Positions 7,302 to 41,160 are shown, numbered from the stretch's first letter. The stretch: DNA of 64,000 nt from Candidatus Falkowbacteria bacterium (GCA_963774955.1 CAVZGV010000003.1:64771-128770), one strand, 5' to 3'. The notes: generated by a model from the letters alone, not told the origin. A program made the numbers and translations.

Positions 7302-9404
7302 ATGTATTCCTTAAGTGCTCCCATAGAAAATTTAACCCGGGTCGGTAAAACTACGGCCGGTCGTTTAAAAAGATTAGGCATTGCCACGGTCAATGACCTG
7401 CTTTTTTATTTTCCGTTCCGTTATGAGGATTTTAGTCAGGTGGTTAAAATAAATGATTTGCGGCCCAACCAGACAGTTACTATTAAAGGTAAGATTGTTT
7501 TGATTGAAAATAGGAGAGCCCATCGTCGCCGTATGACTATTACCGAGGCTTTGATTGAAGATGAAACCGGTTCAATTCAAGTTATCTGGTTTAATCAGCC
7601 TTTTTTAATAAAAAATTTAAAACCCGGTGATGAAGTTTTTATTGCCGGCACTACGGAGATAAATAATTTGTCCCTGCAGTTTACTTCACCGGCCTATGAA
7701 AAAATTACAGGCGGTGACAGCCTTAATACGGCTAAAATTGTACCGGTTTATCCCTTGACCAGCAATTTAACGCAAAAGCAATTGAGATTTTTAGTTAAAG
7801 TTGCTTTGGACTCGGTTAATCTGGTTAAAGAATGGCTGCCCAGGGAAATTTTGGATAAAAATAATTTAATGCCTTTGGCTCAAGCTTTGGCGGACATTCA
7901 TTTTCCGGCTAGTTTTGAGGTTCAGGCGCAGGCTCGTTATCGTTTTAAATTTGATGAGCTTTTTTTAATTGCCTTGCAAAGCCAGAGACTGCGTCAGTAT
8001 TTGGCTCAAACCAAAGCCCCGCAGATTGCGTTTAAAGAGCAGGAGATTAAAAATTTTGTCAGCAGTTTGCCTTTTACTTTGACCGCTGATCAGAAAAAAG
8101 CAGCCTGGCAAATCCTTTTAGATCTGGAAAAATCTCAGCCGGCCAACCGTTTGCTGGAAGGGGATGTCGGATCAGGCAAAACCGTGGTCGCAGCCATGGC
8201 CATTTTAAATACGGTTTTAAATGATTTTCAGGCGGTTTTAATGGCACCGACTGAAATTTTGGCCAGGCAACATTACAATGGAATCAAAACTTTATTAGCG
8301 CCGTTTAAAATTAAAACAGTTTTATTAACGAGCAGCGAAAAAGTATACTTTGACGGTCAGCAAGAAATTGTCGGGAAACATGAAGTTTTGAATTTGGTCA
8401 AAAACGGTAAGGCCCAATTAATAATCGGCACCCATGCTTTAATTCAGGATGAAGTTGAGTATAAGAATTTGGGTTTAGTCATTGTGGATGAGCAACATCG
8501 TTTCGGCGTGGAACAAAGGAAAACATTAAAAGATAAAAATAAAAACGGGTTGACACCTCATTTTATATCCATGACTGCTACGCCGATTCCCCGTTCGCTG
8601 GCTTTGATTTTATACGGCGATTTGGATTTATCCATGATTAAGGAAATGCCCAAGGGCCGTAAAAAAATTATTACCCGCCTGGTTGCTGAATCCGACCGGC
8701 AGCAGGCTTATCAGTTTATCAGGCAGGAAATTAATAACGGGCGTCAGGTTTTTGTCATTTGTCCCTTGATTGATCCTTCTGATAAATTGGGAGTCAAGTC
8801 AGTGACCGAAGAATTTAAAAAACTGGATAAGGAGATTTTTCCGGATCTCAAAATCGGTTTATTGCACGGCAAATTGAAAGGCAAGGAAAAAGAAGCAATT
8901 ATGGCCGACTTTAAAGCTAATGAAATTAAAATGCTGGTTTCCACTTCAGTGATTGAAGTCGGTATTGATATTCCCAATGCTACGATTATGATGATTGAAG
9001 GCGCGGATCGTTTCGGCCTGGCGCAATTACACCAGTTTCGCGGTCGGGTCGGCAGGGGAGAATACCAGTCTTATTGTTTCTTATTTGCGGAAAATTATCC
9101 CGCTAAACGGGATGCCGCTTCGCGGCATAATCCCAAGACTAGGGAAAGGCTGGAAGCCTTGGTTAAATCCAATGACGGTTTTGCTTTGGCTGAATATGAT
9201 CTTAAATTTCGCGGGCCTGGTGAGGTTTACGGCTCACGCCAATCTGGTTTGCCTGAATTACAGATTGCCAGTCTGACTGATTTGGAGTTGATTAATCTGA
9301 CCAAGGAACAGGCTAAGACTTTTTTTACTCAATATAAACTCGAAGATTTCCCTTGGCTTAAGGCTAAATTGGCTGAGAATAAACTGATTGATCATTTGGA
9401 ATAA
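7302..9404 (+). CDS. recG: ATP-dependent DNA helicase RecG
   Basis: 700 aa; N-terminal wedge domain, Walker A GDVGSGKT, DEQH box VIVDEQHRFG, conserved C-terminus TDGFALAEYDLKFRGPGE. Confidence 0.85.
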   Translation: MYSLSAPIENLTRVGKTTAGRLKRLGIATVNDLLFYFPFRYEDFSQVVKINDLRPNQTVTIKGKIVLIENRRAHRRRMTITEALIEDETGSIQVIWFNQPFLIKNLKPGDEVFIAGTTEINNLSLQFTSPAYEKITGGDSLNTAKIVPVYPLTSNLTQKQLRFLVKVALDSVNLVKEWLPREILDKNNLMPLAQALADIHFPASFEVQAQARYRFKFDELFLIALQSQRLRQYLAQTKAPQIAFKEQEIKNFVSSLPFTLTADQKKAAWQILLDLEKSQPANRLLEGDVGSGKTVVAAMAILNTVLNDFQAVLMAPTEILARQHYNGIKTLLAPFKIKTVLLTSSEKVYFDGQQEIVGKHEVLNLVKNGKAQLIIGTHALIQDEVEYKNLGLVIVDEQHRFGVEQRKTLKDKNKNGLTPHFISMTATPIPRSLALILYGDLDLSMIKEMPKGRKKIITRLVAESDRQQAYQFIRQEINNGRQVFVICPLIDPSDKLGVKSVTEEFKKLDKEIFPDLKIGLLHGKLKGKEKEAIMADFKANEIKMLVSTSVIEVGIDIPNATIMMIEGADRFGLAQLHQFRGRVGRGEYQSYCFLFAENYPAKRDAASRHNPKTRERLEALVKSNDGFALAEYDLKFRGPGEVYGSRQSGLPELQIASLTDLELINLTKEQAKTFFTQYKLEDFPWLKAKLAENKLIDHLE

Positions 9405-11000: not shown

Positions 11001-11137
11001 ATGAAAATTAAATTTGGTAGGAAAGTCGCGCAAAAGCCGACGGTCTTTCTTAAGCTAGTCTGGGCCATGCTGGCCAATTGGATCACCTGGCAGGAAATGA
11101 CCGCAATTATGGCGGCCGAGCTCCGGGTTTACGCCTA
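11001..11137 (+). CDS. possible small hydrophobic protein (45 aa)
   Basis: strong RBS aaggaggtataaaATG, followed by bidirectional terminator at about 11195-11240. Confidence 0.3.
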
Positions 11138-11243
11138 AAAATGGAATCAGGCCATGCAGGAGCCAAATTGTCAGGACAATGAGTTGACCATAAAGGCGAA
11201 AACAAAGCGCCCAAAGAGAAATATTACTCGGGCGCTTTTTTAT

Positions 11244-12583
11244 TTATATAACTTTCTTGATGGCCTGTTCCAGATTTTTTACAGGTACTAATTCTTTTTG
11301 TGAGGGTGCGGTTTTGCCAACCGGTATGATAATTTTCTTAAAGTTTAGTTTCAAGGCCTCTTCGATTCTTTTGTCCAGCTGGTAAACCGGCCGGATTTCA
11401 CCACCCAAGCCGACTTCGCCCAAAATCAGGGTTTGCGGGTCAATAGCTTTGTTTTTTAGGGAAGAAACAATAGCCAGGCAAACTGCCAGGTCAGCGCCGG
11501 TTTCGTTGATTTTAAGGCCCCCAGTGACGTTTAAATGGATATCCTGGTTGAGCAAGGGTACATCAGCCCGTTTAATTAGGACAGCTGCCAGCATTTGCAG
11601 TCGATTCAAATCATAGCCTGAACTTCGTCTTTGCGGGTAGCCAAACATGGTTTTGGTAACCAGCGCCTGGACTTCAATCAAAAACGGCCGACTGCCTTCC
11701 ATAATGCAAGTCAGAGCAGAACCGGAAATAGGCGTCTGATTGATGCGGTAGAAAAAGTTCTGAGGGATTTTTTACTTCCAGCAGGCCGCTTGAGCTCATG
11801 CTGAATATGCCGATTTCCTGGGTTGAGCCAAATCGGTTTTTGGCGCAGCGCAGTGAGCCGAAAATCATCCGAAGTTGAACTTTCCAAATACATGACTGCA
11901 TCAACCAGATGTTCCAGTGATTTGGGACCGGCGACCTGGCCGTCTTTAGTCACATGACCGATGATTAGAATGGCGATATTATATTTTTTGGCTATTTCTA
12001 AAAGTTTAACCGTACAAATCCTGACCTGATTAATTGATCCGGCCTCGGAAGGAAGTTCATTAGAATATAAGGTTTGGATGGAATCAATGATAATTAAACT
12101 TGGTTTTTCTTCGACTGCAAATCCGGTAATTTTTTCAACGTTGTTTTCGGCCAGAAATTTTAATTTGGGAAAATCCAGATTAAGCCGGTCAATTCTCATT
12201 TTTATCTGGGAGGCTGATTCTTCACCGGAAACATAAAGAATGGGGGACTGGAGCTGATGGCAGAGTTGTAAAACCAGGGTTGATTTGCCGATGCCGGGTT
12301 CGCCGCCCAGCAGGATTAAACTGCCGGCGACAATACCGCCGCCCAAGACGCGGTCAAATTCGCCGATCTTAGTTTGCAAACGTTCGAATTTGGGAGTGGC
12401 TGAAGTTTTAAAGTCAATGAGTTGGGATTTATCTACCTTTATAGTTGTCATTTGAATTTTGTCATTTGTCATTTCTTCGGCTATGGTTCCCCAGGCGCTG
12501 CAAGTCGAACAGCGCCCAGTCCACTTGGGATACTGGGCGCCGCATTTTGAGCAAGCGTATATTGTCTGAGGTTGTTTAGACAT
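11244..12583 (-). CDS. radA: DNA repair protein RadA, interrupted by two frameshifts in this sequence (pieces 12583-11711, about 11904-11760, 11702-11244)
   Basis: N-terminal zinc ribbon [18 protein letters not shown], Walker [16 protein letters not shown] motif in a second frame, Lon-like C-terminal domain in a third. Confidence 0.75.
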
Positions 12584-12589
12584 GATGGT

Positions 12590-12782
12590 TATTTATTCAA
12601 CCCCCTCTTTGATTCTCCCCCTAATCATAGGGGGAGAGTGCGGGAATATCGGATTTTCCGTAAACACCCCTCCTTACAAAGGAGGGGATCGGGGGAGGTT
12701 CTCGGATACTTTATCAACTCCCTCCCACCTTCGCTAAAGCTACTGTGGGCTAGCTGTATCTCCCTCTAATCTTAGAGGGAGA
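12590..12782. repeat. GC-rich three-hairpin tail of DUF559 copy 1 (C' 12614-12637, B' 12667-12687, A' 12759-12782)
   Basis: perfect 9-10 bp stems tctccccctaatcatagggggaga, cccctccttacaaaggagggg, tctccctctaatcttagagggaga; homologous to 31851-32011. Confidence 0.75.
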
Positions 12783-13175
12783 TTCCGGAAGTGCAGGCTG
12801 AGTTTTGATTTTACGATCGTTTATTTCCTTACAAAGACAATATAGTTCCTCAACCACTGAATCAATATCTTCAAAGATTTGGTGATTCCAATATCTTTTT
12901 ACAATAATTCCGCAATCTTGTAAATATTTATCCCTGATTTTATCTCTATTAATATTCTTTTGTAGGGTATGAATATCACCGTCTAATTCAATCGCTAATT
13001 TTAATTCAGGGCAATAGAAATCTACTATATAGTATCCAATCCCATATTGCCGACGGAATTTGTATCCTAACTTTTTGTTTCTTAATTCTTTCCAGAGTGT
13101 AACTTCAGCTGGAGTCATTTTTTCCCTTAATATTCTTCTTTTCGTTTTATGCAATTTTAAATTAAACAATTGCAT
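12750..13175 (-). CDS. DUF559 (Vsr/restriction-endonuclease-like fold) domain protein, copy 1
   Basis: 141 aa, signature FRRQY..YIVDFYCPELKLAIELDGDIH; about 65% aa identity to 31458-31889. Confidence 0.75.
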   Translation of the reverse strand: MQLFNLKLHKTKRRILREKMTPAEVTLWKELRNKKLGYKFRRQYGIGYYIVDFYCPELKLAIELDGDIHTLQKNINRDKIRDKYLQDCGIIVKRYWNHQIFEDIDSVVEELYCLCKEINDRKIKTQPALPESPSKIRGRYS

Positions 13176-26354: not shown

Positions 26355-28208
26355 CTATGGCTTGTCGCTGAGCAGTTGCTCCAGTTGTTTCAGTTGCTCA
26401 GGAGTCAGGTTGTCCAGCCGTCGTTTGACTTCTTCGTTGTCTGTGTTGGTTTCGGCTTCTGCTTGCGCCGGTACGGTGATAGCATCGCTGGCTTGCTGAA
26501 TTTCGGATTTGGTAAATTCCACATCCGGCAGGTCAAAGCTTGCCATCTGGATAATGCCTTCGTTTGTTTCCAGGTAGGTAATCTTGGCTTGGTCATTGTC
26601 GCGGGCAATAGCCAGTTCTTCGGAGATTTTACTGGTACCGGAAAAAAGCTTGTCAGGCATTTGGTCCAGCCAAACGTAGTATATGGTTACTCCGTTTTGG
26701 CTGTCAGCTGCGATGCGTTTAATTTTGCCTTCAGCTTTTTTTACGTACTTTTCATTACTGGGAGCCATGGTATTGCCGTTGGAAGCCAGTAGCTTGCGAT
26801 ACTCGGCCAGTAATTCCGTTTTGTCCTGTCCGAATGCAACTCGTGAAGACGAGGCTTCGACCATGGCAATGCGCTGGAAAACATGCTGGTCCGAAAGAAT
26901 CGGTACCACCCAGGTAAGGGTGCCGTAAATGTTATAAAGGATTGGATCAGTCGGATGCCATTTGGCAGATTCTGCGCCTAAACCGCTGGAAACAGCCTGG
27001 ATTACCGCTGTTTCATTGGCGCCGTTGATGCGGTAGAAATATGATTTGGCGTTGCGAGAGTTGATCATCAGAAATCCGACCAAGGCGTTATCGCTGGCAG
27101 AAGATGAGGTCATGCCGGTAAACCAGTATGGCTGGCCGTCATTACCGTAGACTAGCCACATATCCAGTTTGCCTGCGACTTCTGTGGGAATCATCACATC
27201 CTGTTCCGACCAGATTGAATTCCACCAGCCGCGGGTGTATTTGCCCCGCCACTTGGCATACGAAAAAGCGATTTTCTGAGGGATGATTCGATCCACCCAG
27301 ACAGGAGCTTCTTCTGGTTTGTATTTTTCAATCTCTCCGGTTTCCGCGTTGACCAGAATTACTCCGGTAACCTTGTCGCCGGTGTAATGATGGATTAGGT
27401 CGTATTTGGTGATGACCCAATAAGGGTTCAATTCATCATCAACTTCAAAGGTAAAATCGGTCAGGCCGGTAAACTGGTAACCTTTGGCATAGACATAACG
27501 TCTGAGGTTGTCGCTAAACCAGCCGGTGGTGACATATTTCAATTTGCGCTGTTCAATCCTGACGGGTCGGTTGCGATCCTCGGCATTGACCATGATAAAA
27601 CCATAGGTTTCCCCATAGCTTTGCCAGGAGGCAAAACCATTGAATTCCAGGGGAGCAACCCACCACAGTTCGTCTTTGACGCGCTGGATATGGAGTGTGC
27701 CCACATGGAAACGGCTGCCGATATTGCCGGGGATTTTGCCGATGTCCTGATTGCCCAACCATTCGGCGTGTTCCTGGTCAATGATCCTGATGTGCTTGGT
27801 ATCAATCGGCTGAAAATCATCCTGCCAGGATTTATCTTCCACCTTGCCGATCATATCCCGCAGATTGACTGACTGGAACATACCCATGGAAAGGATACCC
27901 CGGATCAAAACCAGAACCAGCAGAACCACGAAAAGATAAGTGCCGCCGGGAAGCTCCTCCGAGGTTATCCCGGTGATTAATAGATTGATACTCATGGTCA
28001 GCAAAATCATGAAACTCAGACCCCAGAACGGTCCATAAAGACCGGGGCAGACGGCATAAACAATGCCTACCCATAAGATCAGGGCTACAACTGAACGGAT
28101 GATCCAACCCAAAAGCCATTTGCCATGACCGTCTTCTTTCAGTTGATTGAAATTGGGGTTAAACCCGCCGACGACGCTGACGATAAAAGCCACCCAAAGA
28201 TAACTCAT
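26355..28208 (-). CDS. hypothetical large membrane protein (N-terminal polytopic region + about 450-aa soluble domain); codon usage more GC-rich than neighbours
   Basis: 617-aa intact ORF, 4-5 N-terminal TM helices. Confidence 0.55.
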   Translation of the reverse strand: MSYLWVAFIVSVVGGFNPNFNQLKEDGHGKWLLGWIIRSVVALILWVGIVYAVCPGLYGPFWGLSFMILLTMSINLLITGITSEELPGGTYLFVVLLVLVLIRGILSMGMFQSVNLRDMIGKVEDKSWQDDFQPIDTKHIRIIDQEHAEWLGNQDIGKIPGNIGSRFHVGTLHIQRVKDELWWVAPLEFNGFASWQSYGETYGFIMVNAEDRNRPVRIEQRKLKYVTTGWFSDNLRRYVYAKGYQFTGLTDFTFEVDDELNPYWVITKYDLIHHYTGDKVTGVILVNAETGEIEKYKPEEAPVWVDRIIPQKIAFSYAKWRGKYTRGWWNSIWSEQDVMIPTEVAGKLDMWLVYGNDGQPYWFTGMTSSSASDNALVGFLMINSRNAKSYFYRINGANETAVIQAVSSGLGAESAKWHPTDPILYNIYGTLTWVVPILSDQHVFQRIAMVEASSSRVAFGQDKTELLAEYRKLLASNGNTMAPSNEKYVKKAEGKIKRIAADSQNGVTIYYVWLDQMPDKLFSGTSKISEELAIARDNDQAKITYLETNEGIIQMASFDLPDVEFTKSEIQQASDAITVPAQAEAETNTDNEEVKRRLDNLTPEQLKQLEQLLSDKP

Positions 28209-29231: not shown

Positions 29232-30339
29232 ATGATTACAACTGTATTAATTTTTCTGATTGTTTTAGGTATTTTAGTGCTGGTTCACGAACTGGGACAT
29301 TTTTGCACTGCCAAATTAATGGGCATGAAGATTTACGAATTTGGTATCGGCTTTCCACCGAAAATCTGGAGCAAAAAGGGTAAAGACGGGGTGATTTACT
29401 CGATTAATTCTATACCTTTGGGCGGTTTTGTTAATTTAAGGGAAACAGAATCAGAGGCTTCTGATCCCAATAGTTTTATCAATAAGAAACCATGGAAAAG
29501 GGCCGTCGTTATTTTAGCCGGCGTAGCCATGAATTTTTTATTATGCGTTGTTTTGCTTTCATTTGGTTTTATGTTTGGCCTACCGCAGTCAGTGGATCAG
29601 GATGCGCTTAATTCCGGAATTGTAAAAGATTATAAAATTCAGGTGGTGACTGTTTTAGATGATAAACCAGCCAAAACTGCAGGAGTTGAAATCGGCGATG
29701 TGCTGCTGGCTGTTGATGACCAGAAATATTGCCAGTGTTAAGGATTTGGTTGTGTATACCAGTACTAAAATAGGGACGAAAGTTAATTTTAAATTTTTGC
29801 ATGAAAAAGAGGAAGTAACCAAGGAAATTGAAATTGCAGAATTGGAAAAAGGCAAGGGCGGTATTGGTGTTGGCTTGGTGGAAACCGGGATTGTTTCTTA
29901 TCCGGTTCATTTGGCTGTTTGGCACGGTGTGAAATTAACTTTGGCGCTAACTAAGGAATTTATTTTTGCTTTTGCCAATATTATAAAGAATTTAGTCATT
30001 GGCCAGCCAATCGGCGTCCAGGTTTCCGGTCCGGTCGGTATTGCGGTTTTAACCGGTCAGGTAGCCAAATTGGGTATAATTTATTTACTGCAATTTACGG
30101 CTTTACTCTCATTAAATTTGGCGATTATCAATGCGATACCGTTTCCGGCTTTTGACGGCGGTCATTTAGTCTTTATTATAATTGAAAAAATTCGCCGCAA
30201 GCCTGTTGATAAGAAAATTGAGGGTATAATTCATACTATTGGGTTTTCTTTGTTAATGCTATTGATTATTGTTATTACTTTTCAGGATATTTTAAGGTAT
30301 AGTCATTTTTTTAGTAATTTTTTCAGTAATTTGATTTAA
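29232..30339 (+). CDS. rseP: RseP-like site-2 protease (M50), interrupted by one frameshift near 29710-29740
   Basis: HELGHFCTAK HExxH, PDZ segment, C-terminal NLAIINAIPFPAFDGGH; two overlapping ORFs in frames 0 and 1 rejoin as ...VLLAVDDQK|IASVKDLVVY. Confidence 0.75.
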
Positions 30340-30409: not shown

Positions 30410-31450
30410 ATGGAATTAAAATTCAAAGAACTCAAAGAGCAGGCCTTGAAGGAGATTCAGGCGATTCGCAATTCGGAAGAGTGGCAGCAGATTGAGAATA
30501 AGTATTTTTCCAGAAAAAGCGGGGAATTGGCCAAGCTTTTGAAAGATCTCAAGGATGTTTCCGAGGATTTGCGTCCGAAAATTGGCGCGGTTGCCAATGA
30601 AATAAAAAATGAAATCAGTAAGGCTTTGGAACAAAAAAAAGTCAGATTTGAATTTGGATATTGATGAGGATTTGGAACATGATTTTATTGATGTAACTTT
30701 AGAAATTGAAAAATATAAGCTTGGTCATTTGCATCCTTTGACTCAGGTGCAAATGGAACTGGAAGATATTTTTAAATCCATGGGTTTTATGATTTTGGAC
30801 GGTCCGGAGCTGGAATCGGATTATTATAATTTTGAAGCTTTAAATCTTCCGTCTTGGCATCCGGCTCGTGATATGCAGGATACTTTTTATATTGATCCCA
30901 AGACTGTGAACGGCACGGAAAATTTGCTTATGCGCACTCAAACTTCACCGGTACAAGTGCGGGCAATGCAAAAATATGGCGCGCCTTTGCGTTGTGTGAT
31001 GCCCGGCCGTTGTTTTCGTAATGAAGCCACTGATGTGCGTCATGAACATACTTTTTATCAGATGGAAGGCTTGATGATTGATAAAAATATTTCTTTTAAT
31101 GATATGTGCGGTGTTTTTGGAAACAGTGGCTAAAGAATTATACGGAGATGACACTAAATTAAGATTGCGACCAAAATATTATCCTTTTGTGGAGCCGGGT
31201 GTTAACGGAGAAGTGACTTGTTTTTTGTGCCATGGCAAAGGTTGTAAATTATGCAAACAGACCGGCTGGCTGGAAATCGTCGGCGCGGGCATGGTTCATC
31301 CCAATGTTTTGAAAGCCGGCAATGTTGACCCCAATAAATATCAGGGTTTTGCTTTTGGTTTTGGCTTAACCGGTTGGTGATGCTGAAATACAATATTGAC
31401 GATGCCAGGTTATTGCAGAGTGGGGATTTACGTTTCTTAAACCAATTTTA
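30410..31450 (+). CDS. pheS: phenylalanine--tRNA ligase alpha subunit, interrupted by three single-nt frameshifts (about 30640, about 31100, about 31378)
   Basis: class II motifs across four frames: N-terminal helix, [28 protein letters not shown]-terminal [20 protein letters not shown]. Confidence 0.8.
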
Positions 31451-31457
31451 GATTATA

Positions 31458-31889
31458 ATGCAGTTGTATAATATAAAAGTGCATAAAGAGAAAAGAAGGA
31501 TTTTAAGAAACACAATGACACCCGCTGAAGTTGCGCTTTGGGTAGAATTGAAAAATGAAAAATTAGGATATAAATTTCGACGACAATATGGAGTCGGTCA
31601 CTATATAATTGATTTTTATTGTCCTCAACTTAAATTCGCCATTGAATTGGATGGCGATGTTCATGCCATTGATAGTGTTCATAAAAAAGATCTGATTAGG
31701 GATAAATTTTTGGAAGAATGCGGGATTACCATGAAAAGATTTTGGAATCACGAGATATTTGAGGATATAAATTCAGTTTTGGAGGTGATAGTTAATCTTT
31801 GTCAACAAAAAACCGATTGTAATTCTAAGGTACAGCCGTCTCATCCGGAGTCTCCCTCTAAGATTAGAGGGAGATACAGAGGGAGTTGA
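31458..31889 (+). CDS. DUF559 (Vsr/restriction-endonuclease-like fold) domain protein, copy 2, inserted between pheS and pheT
   Basis: 143 aa; FRRQY..YIIDFYCPQLKFAIELDGDVH; paralog of 12750-13175 in inverted orientation. Confidence 0.75.
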   Translation: MQLYNIKVHKEKRRILRNTMTPAEVALWVELKNEKLGYKFRRQYGVGHYIIDFYCPQLKFAIELDGDVHAIDSVHKKDLIRDKFLEECGITMKRFWNHEIFEDINSVLEVIVNLCQQKTDCNSKVQPSHPESPSKIRGRYRGS

Positions 31890-36420: not shown

Positions 36421-36449
36421 TTGACAAGGTTATAATAATATGATAGATT
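36421..36449 (+). promoter_or_regulatory. sigma70-type promoter with extended -10 (TTGACA-17-TGnTAGATT)
   Basis: read directly. Confidence 0.5.
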
Positions 36450-36455
36450 AAAGAT

Positions 36456-36716
36456 GCTCAAATGCCGCCGAGGCAGATCTCGGCCTGATTCCGCTTCGGA
36501 TCAGAATGACTTGAAAAACTGGTTTTCGGCAGCTTTTACAGGGTTTTGAGCCAGGCTTTTCCGAGCGCATCGTGGCCACTTGCCTGGGCGGAAGTCGCCC
36601 TTCATAAGCGAGAGGACGCACACGCACAAGTCGAGAAAAAAAAGAGATTATTTTTTCGGTCTGAAAAGCTGCCATCCCATTTCTTATTGCCGGAGTCCAC
36701 GTACTCCGGTTTTTTT
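36456..36716 (+). ncRNA. candidate structured RNA of about 260 nt (ncRNA or leader), unidentified class
   Basis: promoter at 36421-36449; GC-rich body with long-range pairing ggcagctttt (36526-36535) / aaaagctgcc (36664-36673); terminator ccggagtccacgtactccgg+TTTTTTT at about 36690-36716. Confidence 0.45.
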
Positions 36717-37237: not shown

Positions 37238-37266
37238 TTGACAAGTTTTACTTTTTCTGTTAAAAT
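37238..37266 (+). promoter_or_regulatory. sigma70-type promoter TTGACA-17-TAAAAT upstream of 37323
   Basis: consensus hexamers with 17-nt spacer; RBS AGGAGG before ATG. Confidence 0.6.
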
Positions 37267-37322
37267 ATATAATCGAGTAAATAGGTCAGAACTTTGACAA
37301 ATTTAACCTAAAAAGGAGGTAC

Positions 37323-38672
37323 ATGGTCATGTTTAAGCGTTCAAATTGGCTGGAAAAATATGGCCTTGTGCCAAAGATTTTTCTGGTCTGTCTGCTTTTT
37401 GTGTGTATTGGCGGTCTGAATATTTTTTTGGGGTTTGCTCAGGTAAATTCTTATTCTTATCAGCAAAAATTCAGCCACAATGCCAAACTGGATCCCTGGT
37501 TTCAACCGCCGGCGTACACCGGTCCGGAATTTGATTCCTGGCGGGAACGTAAAGAGGCTGCGCAAAAAGAAATTGACTCGCTTTATCAGCTGGCTTTGGT
37601 CAAGGGCAACGCATATTCGGTGGCGGATTATTTTCATGACTTTGACAGCCTGATGGAACTGGAAGATAAATACAACATACGCTTAACTTCCAGTACGCCA
37701 TTTTCGCCGCTGGATCAATTTGTCCTTCTGCGGGATAAATTGTCTGCCTGGTCAAGGCCCACACCCGATGACAAGCAGGTGGCTTACATCCAAAAAATCG
37801 GAGAAAAGATACGTCAACGCAACGGGGAGTTGGATTATACATCAAATACTGACATCAGCTGGTCAAGCTTAAGACCCATATTGTCCTGGCTGATAGATGC
37901 TTATCTGAAATTTATGTTCTTCTGCACCTTGATTTATATTATCAGGTTTGAGGAGCACAAAAAGTCTATCAGGCGTTTCCAGAGGCATCATCATGAACTT
38001 GGTAGATTTATTAATGATGAAGAGCCTTTTCCGGGTAGACTTTCATTCTACGATGAAATCCTGATCAACCCGTGGCGTTTTATCGGGCGTGTCCTGCTTT
38101 GGCCTAAGTACTTTCTGCATTATCCGCTTTATGAAAGTCCGGCTCAGCTGTGGCGTTTTAATCGGCTTAAAGCCGAGTTTTTGCGCTACCAGCCATTGGG
38201 CTATCAGCTGACTCCCAGGGAAGAAGCGATTTTACTGGCTCAGGCCGGAAAACCGGTAAAGGATTTTGGCAAAACTATTCGCACTTTGTTTTCCTATCCG
38301 GTTTTTATCAGACGTTCAGTCTATCTTGGCTACCTGTCTCTGGTCTTGGGATTTTTATTGCAGCCGGTAATAGTCTTGGCCGCGGATTATTCCAAGAAGA
38401 TTGAAGCTCATTGCTATGGGCAAGATCAGACCATTTTGGCTGAACAACCAAGTGATACCGGTCAACAAATAAGGGCTGGGACTGAAACCCCAAAACAGCA
38501 ACCTGACGAATCAGGCAATGAATGTCTGATTTTGACAGTTGCAGAGATGAGCATTCCTCTGAGCAGAAGCGAAAAGATCATGGATTTAATTTTGCTCAAA
38601 CCCAAAGAAATTGTTGCTGATATTGTCCATGTTCCCATTTTCCGGTTGCTTATCGCGGCGCGTTGTTTCTAA
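37323..38672 (+). CDS. hypothetical membrane protein (first gene of GC-rich island)
   Basis: 449 aa, TM helices at N-terminus, middle and near C-terminus; about 50% GC codon usage. Confidence 0.5.
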   Translation: MVMFKRSNWLEKYGLVPKIFLVCLLFVCIGGLNIFLGFAQVNSYSYQQKFSHNAKLDPWFQPPAYTGPEFDSWRERKEAAQKEIDSLYQLALVKGNAYSVADYFHDFDSLMELEDKYNIRLTSSTPFSPLDQFVLLRDKLSAWSRPTPDDKQVAYIQKIGEKIRQRNGELDYTSNTDISWSSLRPILSWLIDAYLKFMFFCTLIYIIRFEEHKKSIRRFQRHHHELGRFINDEEPFPGRLSFYDEILINPWRFIGRVLLWPKYFLHYPLYESPAQLWRFNRLKAEFLRYQPLGYQLTPREEAILLAQAGKPVKDFGKTIRTLFSYPVFIRRSVYLGYLSLVLGFLLQPVIVLAADYSKKIEAHCYGQDQTILAEQPSDTGQQIRAGTETPKQQPDESGNECLILTVAEMSIPLSRSEKIMDLILLKPKEIVADIVHVPIFRLLIAARCF

Positions 38673-38729
38673 ACAACAAACCAACTAAAGCAACCCGGAA
38701 GAAGTTCTTCCGGTTTTAGGGAGAACGAA

Positions 38730-39341
38730 ATGCGGAACAAGATGTTTTCGGTAATCGTGTCTTTGGTCATTGGCCTGCTGGCGTTTTCAGCTCTGGCTGT
38801 TGAGGACAAGCCCCAGATGGGAGTGTCGCTCAATACCGGCAGGGAACTTGGCGCCAATGTCAATCTGACCGCCAGCATGGTGTTCATCAATCTGATGTCC
38901 ACTCACGCGCCTTACACTTCCTTGGGCTTGAGCTATCAGGTGACTGACCAGTTTACTCTGGCCGGTTCTATGGGCTACGGCTTCGAGGAAGCAGATACTA
39001 TGGATGCCGGCTGGTTTGTAGGCGCTGATACGACCTTCAAGTCCGATGACTGGATCATGGTCAACAGCCTTTACTACTACGCTGGTTATGATATGTGGTT
39101 TTCTTACCACTCGTTGACTTATCCGCTCGGGTTTACCCGTGTGGGAGTTGATGTGCGTAATTACCACTATCTGCAACTGGTGGATGAAGGCTCCAGATCT
39201 TACCAGGTCGGTCCGAGCCTGAAGATCACTTTCAATGACAAGCTGAGCTTGAAGTTGAATTACTATTACGCGTTTGAACCCTATGGCGAACCGGCCATGG
39301 ATTCGAATGTGTACAAAGCAACTTTGATCTACAAATTCTAA
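38730..39341 (+). CDS. outer-membrane-type small beta-barrel protein (signal peptide, amphipathic beta-strands, C-terminal ...LIYKF)
   Basis: N-terminal signal; alternating hydrophobic pattern; terminal aromatic Phe typical of BAM substrates. Confidence 0.55.
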   Translation: MRNKMFSVIVSLVIGLLAFSALAVEDKPQMGVSLNTGRELGANVNLTASMVFINLMSTHAPYTSLGLSYQVTDQFTLAGSMGYGFEEADTMDAGWFVGADTTFKSDDWIMVNSLYYYAGYDMWFSYHSLTYPLGFTRVGVDVRNYHYLQLVDEGSRSYQVGPSLKITFNDKLSLKLNYYYAFEPYGEPAMDSNVYKATLIYKF

Positions 39342-39353
39342 GCGAGGCTGATC

Positions 39354-39593
39354 ATGACTGCCCCAAAGATTAGTGGTAAAGTAACATTAACTTGCTGTTG
39401 CGGACAAGAAATCAGTGTTCATTTATACCGCAACGATGAACCGCGAACAGCTTATGTTGTTTCTGCGGATGATAAGTCTCAATGTTGTTCAAGTTGCGGT
39501 AGGAAATATCAGTTCGCCCCAGTCGACTGTGTTGCATTTCAGATTTGGCCACCGCCATCGAAGCTCAAAGACGATGGCCATGTCATGACTTGA
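39354..39593 (+). CDS. small Cys-rich zinc-ribbon-like protein
   Basis: TCCCGQ...CCSSCGRKY; terminator 39618-39650. Confidence 0.4.
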   Translation: MTAPKISGKVTLTCCCGQEISVHLYRNDEPRTAYVVSADDKSQCCSSCGRKYQFAPVDCVAFQIWPPPSKLKDDGHVMT

Positions 39594-39617
39594 TTTTTTA
39601 ACGGTAATTAATATAAG

Positions 39618-39650
39618 GGCGAGGAGAAATCTTCGCCCTTTTTTAAATGG
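39618..39650 (+). terminator. intrinsic terminator gggcgaggagaaatcttcgccc+TTTTTT (near-identical copy at 40356-40390)
   Basis: read directly. Confidence 0.7.
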
Positions 39651-39741
39651 GTTGTTACTTGACATTTAAATAATATTGTGTTAAATTAAGGAGTTAAGGT
39701 TCGTTCTTTTTAATCAGGAAACAAAAGGAGGATGGGAAGAA

Positions 39742-40344
39742 ATGTACAGATATTCGGAAAAGAAAAATTCAAATTGGTTGCTGGTGTTGGCCATTTTTAT
39801 GGCGTTGCCGCTTGTTGTCCTTACTGCCGCCCGTTTTTACCAGCAGTACATGTTCAAAATTGAATGCACTGGCCATCTGAAGCGGGCGGCTGACGCCAAT
39901 GTCATCCGTCTGGCGAGTCAGGAAATGGACACAGCAATCCGCTATCTGGAAAAGAATGAGATGACCAGCGGTTATACTTCAGTGATAATTCAGACACCGG
40001 ATGAGGATGTGGGCTTCTGGTATCAGAATCTCAAGGCATCTGCGGAAGAGCTGGTTAATATTTCTTCGGAGGCAACGCAGCTGGAAAGCAGCAATGTGTT
40101 GATGAAATTGAGGGAAACTTTGTTGGATGAAGGACAAATCACTAAGGTTACTGTTCCCAGTGGCGTGGCTATATTTCCACATAATAAGGCCTATGCCCTT
40201 TTTACAGCCTTGGCAGCTCTGATGTTTGTTGGTGCCGCCATCCTGTATTTGCATAATTCCAAACAAAGTTTTACTTTGATTGAATTGATGATAGTGATCT
40301 CAATCGTCGGGATACTTATCACCTTGGCTTACCAGTATGCCTAG
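39742..40344 (+). CDS. hypothetical membrane protein whose last 25 aa reproduce a prepilin-type N-terminal motif (FTLIELMIVISIVGIL) without the cleavage-site Gly
   Basis: N-terminal TM, soluble domain, second TM, then pilin-like hydrophobic segment ending at the stop. Confidence 0.45.
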   Translation: MYRYSEKKNSNWLLVLAIFMALPLVVLTAARFYQQYMFKIECTGHLKRAADANVIRLASQEMDTAIRYLEKNEMTSGYTSVIIQTPDEDVGFWYQNLKASAEELVNISSEATQLESSNVLMKLRETLLDEGQITKVTVPSGVAIFPHNKAYALFTALAALMFVGAAILYLHNSKQSFTLIELMIVISIVGILITLAYQYA

Positions 40345-40355
40345 ATAAATAATAG

Positions 40356-40390
40356 GGGCGAGGAGAAATCCTCGCCCTTTTTTAATTTAT
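40356..40390 (+). terminator. intrinsic terminator ggggcgaggagaaatcctcgccc+TTTTTT
   Basis: duplicate of 39618-39650. Confidence 0.7.
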
Positions 40391-40496
40391 TACAAATTTC
40401 AGGATAGCGAATATACAAATCGAGTACAAATATACAAATAACCTAATTCATTAATAAACTAATAGATATTGACAATAAGTATTTATTTCGCTACAT

Positions 40497-40796
40497 TTGA
40501 TTTATGTTTCTAAGCCAAAGGAGGGACTGGAAATGATAGGTTTTGCCATAATGCTTTCGATTTTGGGTGCGTGTGTCGTGACCGGCATTTTGTTGAGAAA
40601 GTTCAAGTTCAAACGCGACTGTGAGAATGAGATGATTGCCGGAGTTTGCGCCGGTTTAGCCAAAACCTGTGGCATTCAGCCTTTGTGGATGCGTCTGGGC
40701 TTTGTTCTTTCAACCGTATGTGTCGGTTATGGCCTGGGTCTCTATATTATATTGTGGATCGTCTTACCCGAGGATTTACCAGAGGAAGGGGTGTAA
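40497..40796 (+). CDS. PspC-domain membrane protein
   Basis: MIAGVCAGLAKTCGIQPLWMRLGFVL...LYIILWIVLPE. Confidence 0.75.
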   Translation: MIYVSKPKEGLEMIGFAIMLSILGACVVTGILLRKFKFKRDCENEMIAGVCAGLAKTCGIQPLWMRLGFVLSTVCVGYGLGLYIILWIVLPEDLPEEGV

Positions 40797-40845
40797 AGAC
40801 GTGGAAATTTATTGCTCGATCGGGGTCTTTTCTATCAGCCTGAGC

Positions 40846-41073
40846 ATGTTCATTTTGATTATCCGGATTTCCAAAATCGGTCTGAGCCAACAAGGTAAAA
40901 AAATAGCCGGTGTTTGCGCCGGTTTATCTGAAGCTTCAGATATGCCGGTTTGGTGGATCCGCATTTTCTTTATGATTTTCTTCTTTTTTGTCGGGTATGG
41001 TTTTTTTCTCTATCTGGCGCTCTGGCTTTGCATGGTCAAAGTGAAGAAAAATACTCAGACGGAGACAAAATAG
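40846..41073 (+). CDS. PspC-domain membrane protein (second copy; start at M60 of the ORF-track entry)
   Basis: KKIAGVCAGLSEASDMPVWWIRIFFMIFF..LYLALW; bidirectional terminator 41087-41112. Confidence 0.65.
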   Translation: MFILIIRISKIGLSQQGKKIAGVCAGLSEASDMPVWWIRIFFMIFFFFVGYGFFLYLALWLCMVKVKKNTQTETK

Positions 41074-41160
41074 CAAAATAGTCTTTAAAAACGGCCGCTT
41101 GGCCGTTTTTTCCTTTTAGAATTTTTTTATTTTTTGAAATATTTATCCAGCCTATTAAAG

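Follow-up and report, generated by a model that had tools for sequence, protein, structure and literature searches.

The 64,000-nt stretch of DNA analyzed here (the window; coordinates count from its first letter) comes from a Candidatus Falkowbacteria bacterium (GCA_963774955.1 CAVZGV010000003.1:64771-128770) and carries two adjacent genes, here termed A and B, which encode an orphan alpha-helical protein and an exported protein that by most criteria is a beta-barrel of the outer membrane protein (OMP) superfamily. We propose, with a probability of roughly 0.55, that A and B constitute a two-gene envelope module, vertically inherited in a single small clade of the Parcubacteria group. What is said here of the structure and evolution of the pair is well supported, and so is a bistable RNA switch that precedes gene B; the functional model offered below is more tentative. 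Much of bacterial diversity belongs to the Candidate Phyla Radiation (CPR, or Patescibacteria), a group in which the envelope and the uptake of resources from hosts are poorly understood. An OMP-type barrel in a lineage held to be free of an outer membrane (OM) would mean either that some CPR bacteria have kept or rebuilt an outer lipid layer, which bears on the debate over transitions between two-membrane and one-membrane envelopes, or that barrels are made and used without the beta-barrel assembly machinery (BAM), possibly in a host membrane. The module consists of just two genes and a short RNA element, so that either outcome is directly testable.

Gene B (38730-39341, + strand) encodes a 203-aa protein, identified as an exported barrel from Pfam, AlphaFold2 (AF2) and Foldseek results and from its homologues. 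A preliminary description of this DNA had called the product OMP-like on account of a signal peptide, amphipathic beta-strands and a C-terminal LIYKF, and gene B shows all of these. The signal peptide, delimited by inspection, covers residues 1-23 (nt 38730-38798) and has a K/R n-region, a hydrophobic core and a signal peptidase I-type site between ALA and VED, with A23 and E25 conserved; in the AF2 model, residues 2-18 form a helix that is followed by a disordered linker. The mature part, about 180 aa long, contains no Cys, is 17.5% aromatic and is rich in Tyr, Gly and Ser, and most of its 11 strands have, in the family average, one hydrophobic and one polar face. The C-terminus ...KATLIY[KN]F is near-invariant (...KATLIYKF in the window protein), its terminal F being invariant in 17/17 close homologues and kept in the majority of distant ones, and 47 alignment columns are invariant across the family. 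The AF2 model, built from 17 sequences, is an all-beta meander with a predicted local distance difference test score (pLDDT) of 79.8 and a predicted template-modelling score (pTM) of 0.70. When this model was compared with the PDB in Foldseek, eight matches were obtained at E<=0.001, every one a membrane barrel; the best full-length TM-score was 0.56, to the 12-stranded NanC (E 7e-3), and FadL was also among the matches. The matches of lowest E were to the odd-stranded VDAC/Tom40 barrels, with poor TM-scores.

Searches with sequence point the same way. The Pfam family OMP_b-brl (PF13505) is matched at E<0.1 in 7/22 members of the B family (best E 1.2e-6), and the other weak Pfam matches among these 22 members are to the membrane-barrel families Phenol_MetA_deg, Porin_4, YfaZ, DUF5777 and MtrB_PioB, the single non-barrel match being one weak DUF3332; the best PDB sequence match, OmpG, is non-significant (E 0.05). 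By most criteria, then, although with the Pfam threshold missed, sequence and model assign B to the OMP superfamily. With the small OM barrels of Pfam clan MBB (PF13505; the nearest are the 12-stranded NanC/KdgM-type, PDB 2wjr) it shares the signal peptide, a mature all-beta meander of about 180 aa with alternating hydrophobic and polar residues, the lack of Cys, the richness in Tyr, Gly and Ser, and the terminal Phe of the beta-signal. It differs from them in that its host lineage is regarded as having neither OM nor BAM, in that its model has 11 strands and theirs are even in number, in its strict pairing with an orphan protein that is probably located in the cytoplasmic membrane, and in the extreme rarity of its family (23 clusters in 1.84e9 representatives).

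The distribution of B is correspondingly narrow: 17 homologues in 5.8e9 proteins, 12 of the 23 clusters at E<=1e-30, six loci in 241 million metagenome records and seven loci in 185,579 species genomes. Five of these last seven are labelled Parcubacteria, Falkowbacteria or Patescibacteria, and 2/7 carry the label uncultured Gammaproteobacteria (GTDB); of the latter, L012 is identical to L006, with the same CPR-type backbone, and in L008 the genes follow the same order. No relative of A or B turned up among 2.9 million viral contigs, and a phage origin was rejected on this ground. A CPR-type contig of one distant relative (L016:2171-2833) carries a 220-aa paralogue directly after B, whose nearest kin are the divergent P0060/P0062 group (29% identity, E 1e-13 to 1e-15), from which it follows that the barrel family has duplicated within CPR-type genomes.

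Gene A (37323-38672, + strand; placed by alignment and AF2) encodes 449 aa, or 447 aa if translation begins at the ATG at 37329. Hydrophobic segments at about residues 17-40, 180-205 and 333-356 are predicted, from sequence and model, to be transmembrane helices that span the cytoplasmic membrane. By the positive-inside rule the N-terminus would lie inside, followed by a helical ectodomain of about 130 aa (pLDDT 80-90), a core on the cytoplasmic side that is conserved (RFNRLKAEFLRY.P.GYQLT.REE) and, outside, a low-complexity tail whose conserved end reads HVP..RL..AARC. We found 23 homologues of A, all on Parcubacteria-type contigs where labelled. Attempts to assign A to a known fold or family failed, as no Pfam domain was detected in 14 members, PDB sequence and Foldseek searches returned no sequence or fold match, and the model is too uncertain beyond its helices; A belongs to no known family. 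It is tied to B: A directly precedes B at each locus whose upstream sequence is long enough (about 15 independent contigs), including those in which B shares no more than 35-39% identity with the window protein, and size-matched contigs indicate the same pairing for further distant members. As a helical protein combined with a barrel in an atypical envelope, the pair resembles the toga proteins Omp-alpha/Omp-beta of Thermotogae, whose genes are likewise adjacent, and the OmpM/SlpA proteins of Terrabacteria (PMC10160955). Unlike the OmpM/SlpA tethers, A has no SLH (S-layer homology) or other peptidoglycan-binding domain (Pfam, 14 homologues), and unlike these and Omp-alpha it is predicted to be anchored by three transmembrane helices. 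No sequence or fold similarity between A and the Omp-alpha/OmpM systems was found, and the helical ectodomain is a resemblance and not a sign of membership.

The A-B pair is embedded in a conserved backbone of the order PheT - p462 - p103 - [variable] - A - B - [variable] - GT501 - GT360 - GT - DUF4012 - MreB (GT, glycosyltransferase), and occupies the same PheT...MreB slot in every related contig examined, again about 15 independent ones, which are labelled Parcubacteria, Falkowbacteria or Patescibacteria where a label is present. The genomes concerned have PheT identities of 61% to 84%. The ratio of nonsynonymous to synonymous substitution (dN/dS) is 0.12-0.18 for B (dS 0.75-1.6 in four pairs), 0.19-0.40 for A and 0.08-0.10 for PheT (dS 1.1-2.2), which indicates that A and B have diverged in step with the genome and under purifying selection. 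B probably goes back to a single ancient acquisition from a diderm bacterium, or else to retention from a diderm ancestor. The preliminary description had suggested a search for a donor lineage; no donor of B was identified, its distant relatives (about 20% identity) lying on contigs of 1-3 kb with uninformative neighbours.

The GC content at third codon positions (GC3) of B exceeds the mean of the backbone genes in 11/11 genomes, by +0.08 to +0.36, including genomes in which the backbone GC3 is only 0.25-0.26, and a bias that recurs whatever the background is a property of the gene and not a fresh donor signature. In the two most distant pairs compared at four-fold degenerate sites, identity is 0.32 between the window and L006 (0.24 expected by chance) and 0.46 between the window and L014 (0.27 expected). 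The 64-kb window holds no ribosomal protein genes that could serve for a comparison of codon usage. Selection for efficient or high expression, and not recent foreign origin, is the most likely source of the bias. We regard as improbable the alternative that B, and A to a lesser degree, came from a diderm by an ancient transfer and that the GC3 is the fading composition of the donor, incompletely erased. Such a history would fit a family limited to one clade with a fold typical of diderms, the somewhat raised GC3 of A and of the PspC genes farther downstream, and the incomplete randomisation of four-fold sites between the closest relatives (0.58 vs 0.29 expected). Against it, some of the most divergent genomes show a GC3 excess of B that is just as large or larger (L014: 0.60 vs 0.25), and at dS of about 1 or more (0.75-1.6, four pairs) neutral amelioration should have erased the signature.

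Transcription of the pair, with or without the small ORF C (open reading frame C) that follows B in the window, appears to start from a strong sigma-70-type promoter at 37238-37266 (+ strand; TTGACA-17-TAAAAT, TG-extended), which matches the consensus at 11/12 positions and is the best match in 36-41.5 kb; the consensus promoter of the preliminary description is therefore present. Translation of B seems to be governed by a conserved RNA switch at 38640-38729 (+ strand), recognized by folding and covariation, that takes in the last codons of A and the 57-nt A-B spacer. It comprises a P1 helix predicted by RNAalifold (38640-38651 with 38688-38700), a P2 hairpin around the stop codon of A (38662-38677), a mimic of the Shine-Dalgarno (SD) sequence (CCGGAAGA, 38695-38702), an anti-SD segment (GTTCTTCCGG, 38704-38713) and the SD of gene B (GGGAGAAC, 38719-38726), all on the + strand. 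The anti-SD can pair either with the mimic (P3) or with the SD (P4), the two helices being mutually exclusive. Both options are present in 11/11 loci and of similar stability in 10/11 (P3 -10 to -14, P4 -9 to -18 kcal/mol); the P3 of L003, at -5.3 kcal/mol, was obtained from a shortened fold window. RNAalifold gave a poor consensus on the raw MAFFT alignment of the spacers, and the switch is clear from per-sequence folds and from a trimmed alignment, in which 96% of the P3 cells are paired, 4/7 pairs are compensatory, and the covariation score was reached by 0/500 shuffles, with slid controls clearly lower. Between lineages the three segments appear to change together (mimic/anti-SD/SD: CCGGGAG/CTCCCGG/GGAGAA; CGGGGAA/TTCCCCG/GGGGAAA; CCGGGAGG/CCTTCCGG/GGGAGGAC), the SD side having been read by eye. 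No Rfam family matches the switch.

The SD-mimic overlaps P1, the long-range helix with the last codons of A, and a switch that partly overlaps the 3' end of A would couple the synthesis of B to the translation of A. Our hypothesis is one of translational coupling, in which a ribosome finishing A would open P1, P3 would form and the SD of B would be freed, and B would be made only together with A. This was modelled by masking the ribosome footprint in L007, L009, the window and L001; the probability of the SD being paired fell from 1.00 to 0.17 in L007 and from 0.67 to 0.29 in L009. As in known SD-sequestering switches and coupling hairpins (phage MS2 and many operons; a general mechanism), the anti-SD has two alternative partners, the SD and an SD-mimic farther upstream, the mimic in turn being sequestered by pairing with the end of the ORF before it; the present element differs in having no Rfam match and in a mixed outcome of the coupling test.

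For the function of the pair we put forward a joint model, which is plausible but in our estimate falls short of even odds. B would be exported by the Sec pathway, A would capture, assemble or tether it through the external helical domain and tail, and B would form a small pore or a channel for hydrophobic solutes in a lipid environment outside the organism's own cytoplasmic membrane, for instance where the organism is in contact with a host cell. A pore at such a contact would suit the dependence of these episymbionts on nutrients and lipids. More specific, and correspondingly more doubtful, is the proposal that a clade having neither BAM nor an OM of its own makes a genuine transmembrane barrel, with A as a dedicated assembly or tethering factor, and places it in a surface lipid patch or in the host membrane as a conduit for metabolites or lipids; if true, barrels would here be made by a route independent of BAM, and the interface between episymbiont and host would be of a new kind. 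A precedent for insertion into a foreign membrane exists in PopA, a predator OMP of Bdellovibrio bacteriovorus that is reported to insert into the prey membrane (PMC12228718). Like the proposed B, PopA is a porin-like barrel whose producer lives on other bacteria; unlike B, it belongs to a true diderm, as a pentameric OMP that traps lipids, and no homology between the two was detected.

Several points weigh against the account given so far. CPR bacteria are thought to have neither OM nor BAM, and the folding and insertion of a barrel with a beta-signal are left unexplained. The match of B itself to PF13505 (27.3 bits, E 4.6e-6) lies below the gathering cut-off of 28.7, and DSSP assigns 11 strands to its AF2 model (m619cca3d75cf), an odd strand count being atypical for bacterial barrels; B may be an even-stranded barrel of which one strand was missed, or something unusual. 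The AF2 model of A is all-alpha with a pLDDT of 60, which is low confidence. The ribosome-mask calculation did not favor coupling in the window (0.83 to 0.81) or in L001, and the cause proposed above for the codon bias of B is one that we infer.

B might also not be embedded in a membrane at all and might act as a secreted or wall-associated barrel for hydrophobic ligands such as host lipids, with A as its receptor or importer partner. CPR bacteria are not known to synthesize lipids de novo, the linkage of A and B is strict, and large external segments are predicted for A; the weak profile matches of B include channels for hydrophobic substrates (Phenol_MetA_deg), as its Foldseek matches include FadL. 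All of this would suit a ligand carrier, yet the strands share one consistently hydrophobic face, as those of membrane-embedded barrels do, the C-terminal beta-signal is conserved, and no soluble-barrel family is found among the matches. We consider a soluble barrel unlikely and retain the membrane barrel as the preferred reading.

The nature of the host envelope has to be considered next. The close homologues of A and B come from metagenome-assembled genomes labelled Candidatus Parcubacteria, Patescibacteria group, Falkowbacteria or Buchananbacteria, all of the Patescibacteria/Parcubacteria group, and the window protein is encoded both by an NCBI/ENA contig of 565,549 bp and, independently, by a Logan contig. 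The encoding of an OMP-type barrel in a genome of Patescibacteria/Parcubacteria (CPR) type is supported, and no description of OMP-like barrels in CPR was found in the literature searched. Besides housekeeping genes (RecG, PheT, a ProS-type aminoacyl-tRNA synthetase, MreB and HolB), DUF4012 and several GT2 glycosyltransferases, the window contains at 1449-4590 genes of a Gram-positive-type type IV secretion system (T4SS; PrgI, a TraC-like protein and a TraG/VirB4-like ATPase), and a PrgI-type T4SS is consistent with a single-membrane envelope. No OM biogenesis gene was detected in the 64-kb window or in about 250 kb of relatives' loci where Pfam calls existed, and no Omp85 gene in the 64-kb window (of a 565-kb contig) or in the relatives' fetched loci. 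The unexpected combination of an OM-type barrel with an apparently monoderm-like genome, to which the preliminary description had drawn attention, is thus borne out by the CPR labels of the homologues, by the type of T4SS and by the lack of OM genes in the window.

In the literature, CPR are treated as having lost the OM (PMC10160955; PMC8871954), a loss for which PMC10160955 cites Witwinowski 2022. One could suppose instead that the clade is in fact diderm, or has a rudimentary outer lipid layer, and that B is its porin, inserted by an Omp85-type machine that escaped detection. B does carry every sequence hallmark of a BAM substrate, including the near-invariant C-terminal ...IYNF; moreover, the envelope of this clade has never been imaged, and the annotation of membrane architecture in CPR is not based on cryo-electron tomography, the organisms being uncultured (PMC10160955). 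Set against this are the OM loss that published surveys report for CPR (Witwinowski 2022, as cited in PMC10160955), the lack of OM biogenesis genes in the window and the related loci together with the PrgI-type T4SS, and the presence of one small barrel family with at most one paralogue, where diderms have dozens. A cryptic OM therefore seems to us quite unlikely, somewhat more so than a soluble barrel.

The region (37238-40344) had previously been described as a compositionally foreign island of four genes with about 50% GC, the genes (37323-40344) showing an abrupt switch to GC-rich codons. The GC content of 37323-40344 is 44.9%, compared with 39.4% for the remainder and 39.7% for the window overall; the suggested check by z-scores gives about 2.0 for GC (3-kb windows) and 3.5 for tetranucleotide distance, the latter being the top outlier of the window. 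The outlier is therefore real, but it is smaller and less uniform than stated, and only gene B approaches 50% (GC 0.493, GC3 0.64, the top GC3 among the 59 ORFs of the window). Gene A has a GC of 0.443 and a GC3 of 0.47, ORF C has a background GC3 of 0.36, and gene D, the fourth of the supposed island, has a GC3 of 0.53. The anomaly also extends past 40344, because the two PspC ORFs that follow (to 41073) have a GC3 of 0.52-0.54.

The atypical composition, and the fact that the superfamily of B is typical of diderms, are what speaks for a recent joint import of the four genes from a donor of higher GC, a reading that we hold to be very improbable and that is largely refuted. A and B are found at the identical syntenic site in about 15 related contigs, down to a PheT identity of 61%, with a dS similar to that of PheT. 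The only genes that travel together are these two; C is missing from relatives, and D, which has its own promoter and terminator, is a member of an unrelated family. No integrase or transposase domain was detected by Pfam at 34.5-41.9 kb, the nearest tRNAs lie at 7 kb and 58.6 kb of the window and thus do not flank the genes, the only repeat at the locus is the internal terminator pair described below, with no bordering direct repeats, and no close homologue outside the clade marks a donor. On the grounds of conserved synteny, dS and the lack of mobility genes, the recent-island reading was rejected; a patch of atypical GC need not be a recent island, and a tempting misreading is corrected. 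A mis-joining of a diderm fragment into a CPR contig, for which one could cite the homopolymer frameshifts in pheS and rseP elsewhere in the window as signs of assembly error, is refuted because independent NCBI, JGI, ENA and Logan assemblies, with contigs of up to 565 kb, show the identical arrangement with CPR backbone on both sides.

The genes beside the A-B pair (C, D and PspC in the window; DapB and others in relatives) are separate monocistronic units. ORF C (39354-39593, + strand), a Cys-rich orphan ORF of 79 aa, starts 13 nt after B and lies upstream of the first terminator; it has no Pfam match and is called as a gene on the identical Logan contig. It was rejected as part of the module on the finding that relatives have unrelated small ORFs or nothing after B. 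The terminator T1 (39615-39646, + strand; GGGCGAGGA-GAAA-TCTTCGCCC followed by T6) ends the A-B-C unit, and its near-copy T2 (40354-40385, + strand) ends gene D. The two near-identical terminators reported earlier are indeed there: between 39617-39646 and 40356-40385, 29/30 bases are the same, and the window contains no further copy, with 0 expected by chance. The hairpin GGGCGAGGA-GAAA-TCCTCGCCC (consensus GGGCGAGGA-GAAA-TCYTCGCCC) is conserved across relatives with compensatory changes, and in most related loci examined it stands after B or after the ORF that follows B; further copies come after the variable genes around the pair. In L001, a 122-nt terminator-spacer module is present three times (11057-11178, 12088-12209 and 12953-13074), as is a nearby 31-nt promoter-like repeat, the repeats bracketing DapB and a D homologue; in L003, a copy of the hairpin (at 8577) follows a PPDK gene inserted upstream of A. 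A shared terminator-promoter intergenic module explains the twin terminators, and it probably favors the gain and loss of neighboring genes by recombination.

Gene D (39742-40344, + strand; assigned from Pfam and homologues) is preceded by its own promoter-like site (39659-39687, + strand; TTGACA-17-TAAATT, TG) and encodes a 200-aa membrane protein that is not part of the A-B module. Its family is widespread and has more than 849 members with a typical length of about 165 aa, some annotated as Peregrinibacteria or Saprospiraceae, and the first 165 aa or so of D are predicted from sequence to consist of a transmembrane helix, a conserved ectodomain of about 120 aa and a second transmembrane helix. 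The prepilin-like motif noticed earlier at the C-terminus of this ORF was recovered by Pfam as N_methyl (PF07963; 31.8 bits vs a cut-off of 21.2) at residues 173-197 of 200 (nt 40258-40332, SFTLIELMIVISIVGIL), and the window has no second pilin-like motif. This C-terminal extension is shared by a subfamily of 200-212 aa that comprises D, its L001 homologue and others from separate assemblies. The motif xTLIE[LIV]MIV..IG is found in P0066-P0068, P0143 and P0148; an acidic residue at position 5 (Glu, or Asp in P0066) is conserved in 6/7 extended members fetched, and position -1 is Gly in one member only and Ser in the window protein. A truncated or fused pilin gene was considered and rejected, as the extension is conserved in homologues and the sequence after the stop codon holds no remnant of a pilin. 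Nor is D itself a pilin, since the motif is C-terminal, Ser occupies position -1 and three residues follow it. With type IV pilins and pseudopilins (PF07963) it has in common a hydrophobic helix with the FTLIEL signature and Glu5, and the predicted orientation of the helix (cytoplasmic side - helix - outside) matches that of a prepilin; it differs from them in that the motif comes after two predicted transmembrane helices and an ectodomain, and in having no globular pilin domain. One may speculate that D docks to pilus components by means of this pilin-mimic helix.

Downstream of D, a promoter at 40469-40497, two tandem genes for PspC-domain membrane proteins (about 40533-40796 and about 40801-41073; Pfam E 4.5e-21 and 3.6e-17) and a terminator at 41087-41110 form a further unit, all on the + strand. 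PspC genes are also found downstream of B in eight relatives (L001, L006, L009, L011, L016, L024, L027 and L028), and a link to protection against membrane stress from a pore-forming neighbor is speculative.

A few other features of the window were recorded. The genes rseP (M50 protease, 29232-30339) and pheS (30410-31448), both essential, are each frameshifted; the break in pheS is located at an A8 homopolymer (30633-30640), with a further in-frame stop near 31131, and the relatives' genes are intact (369 aa and 346 aa, respectively). The breaks are either homopolymer assembly errors or marks of pseudogenes. Two paralogues of DUF559 (Vsr-like endonuclease), about 65% identical, are encoded at 12750-13175 (- strand) and 31458-31889 (+ strand). 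One of these ORFs sits between pheS and pheT, where relatives have none or NIF3, and it may be a mobile endonuclease. The runner-up tetranucleotide outlier of the window, at 25-29 kb (z 2.8; GC z 2.3), is centered on an ORF at 26355-28208 (- strand) for a 617-aa multi-pass membrane protein with a GC3 of 0.57 and no Pfam match. Finally, upstream of the p143 ORF and gene A, a GC-rich non-coding stretch of about 260 nt (36450-36712) is bracketed by a promoter-like site (36421-36449) and a terminator (36689-36710); it has no match in Rfam, folds at -85.6 kcal/mol and is conserved over about 100 nt in L009 (71%) and over 33 nt in L001, and it is a candidate for a small RNA or leader.

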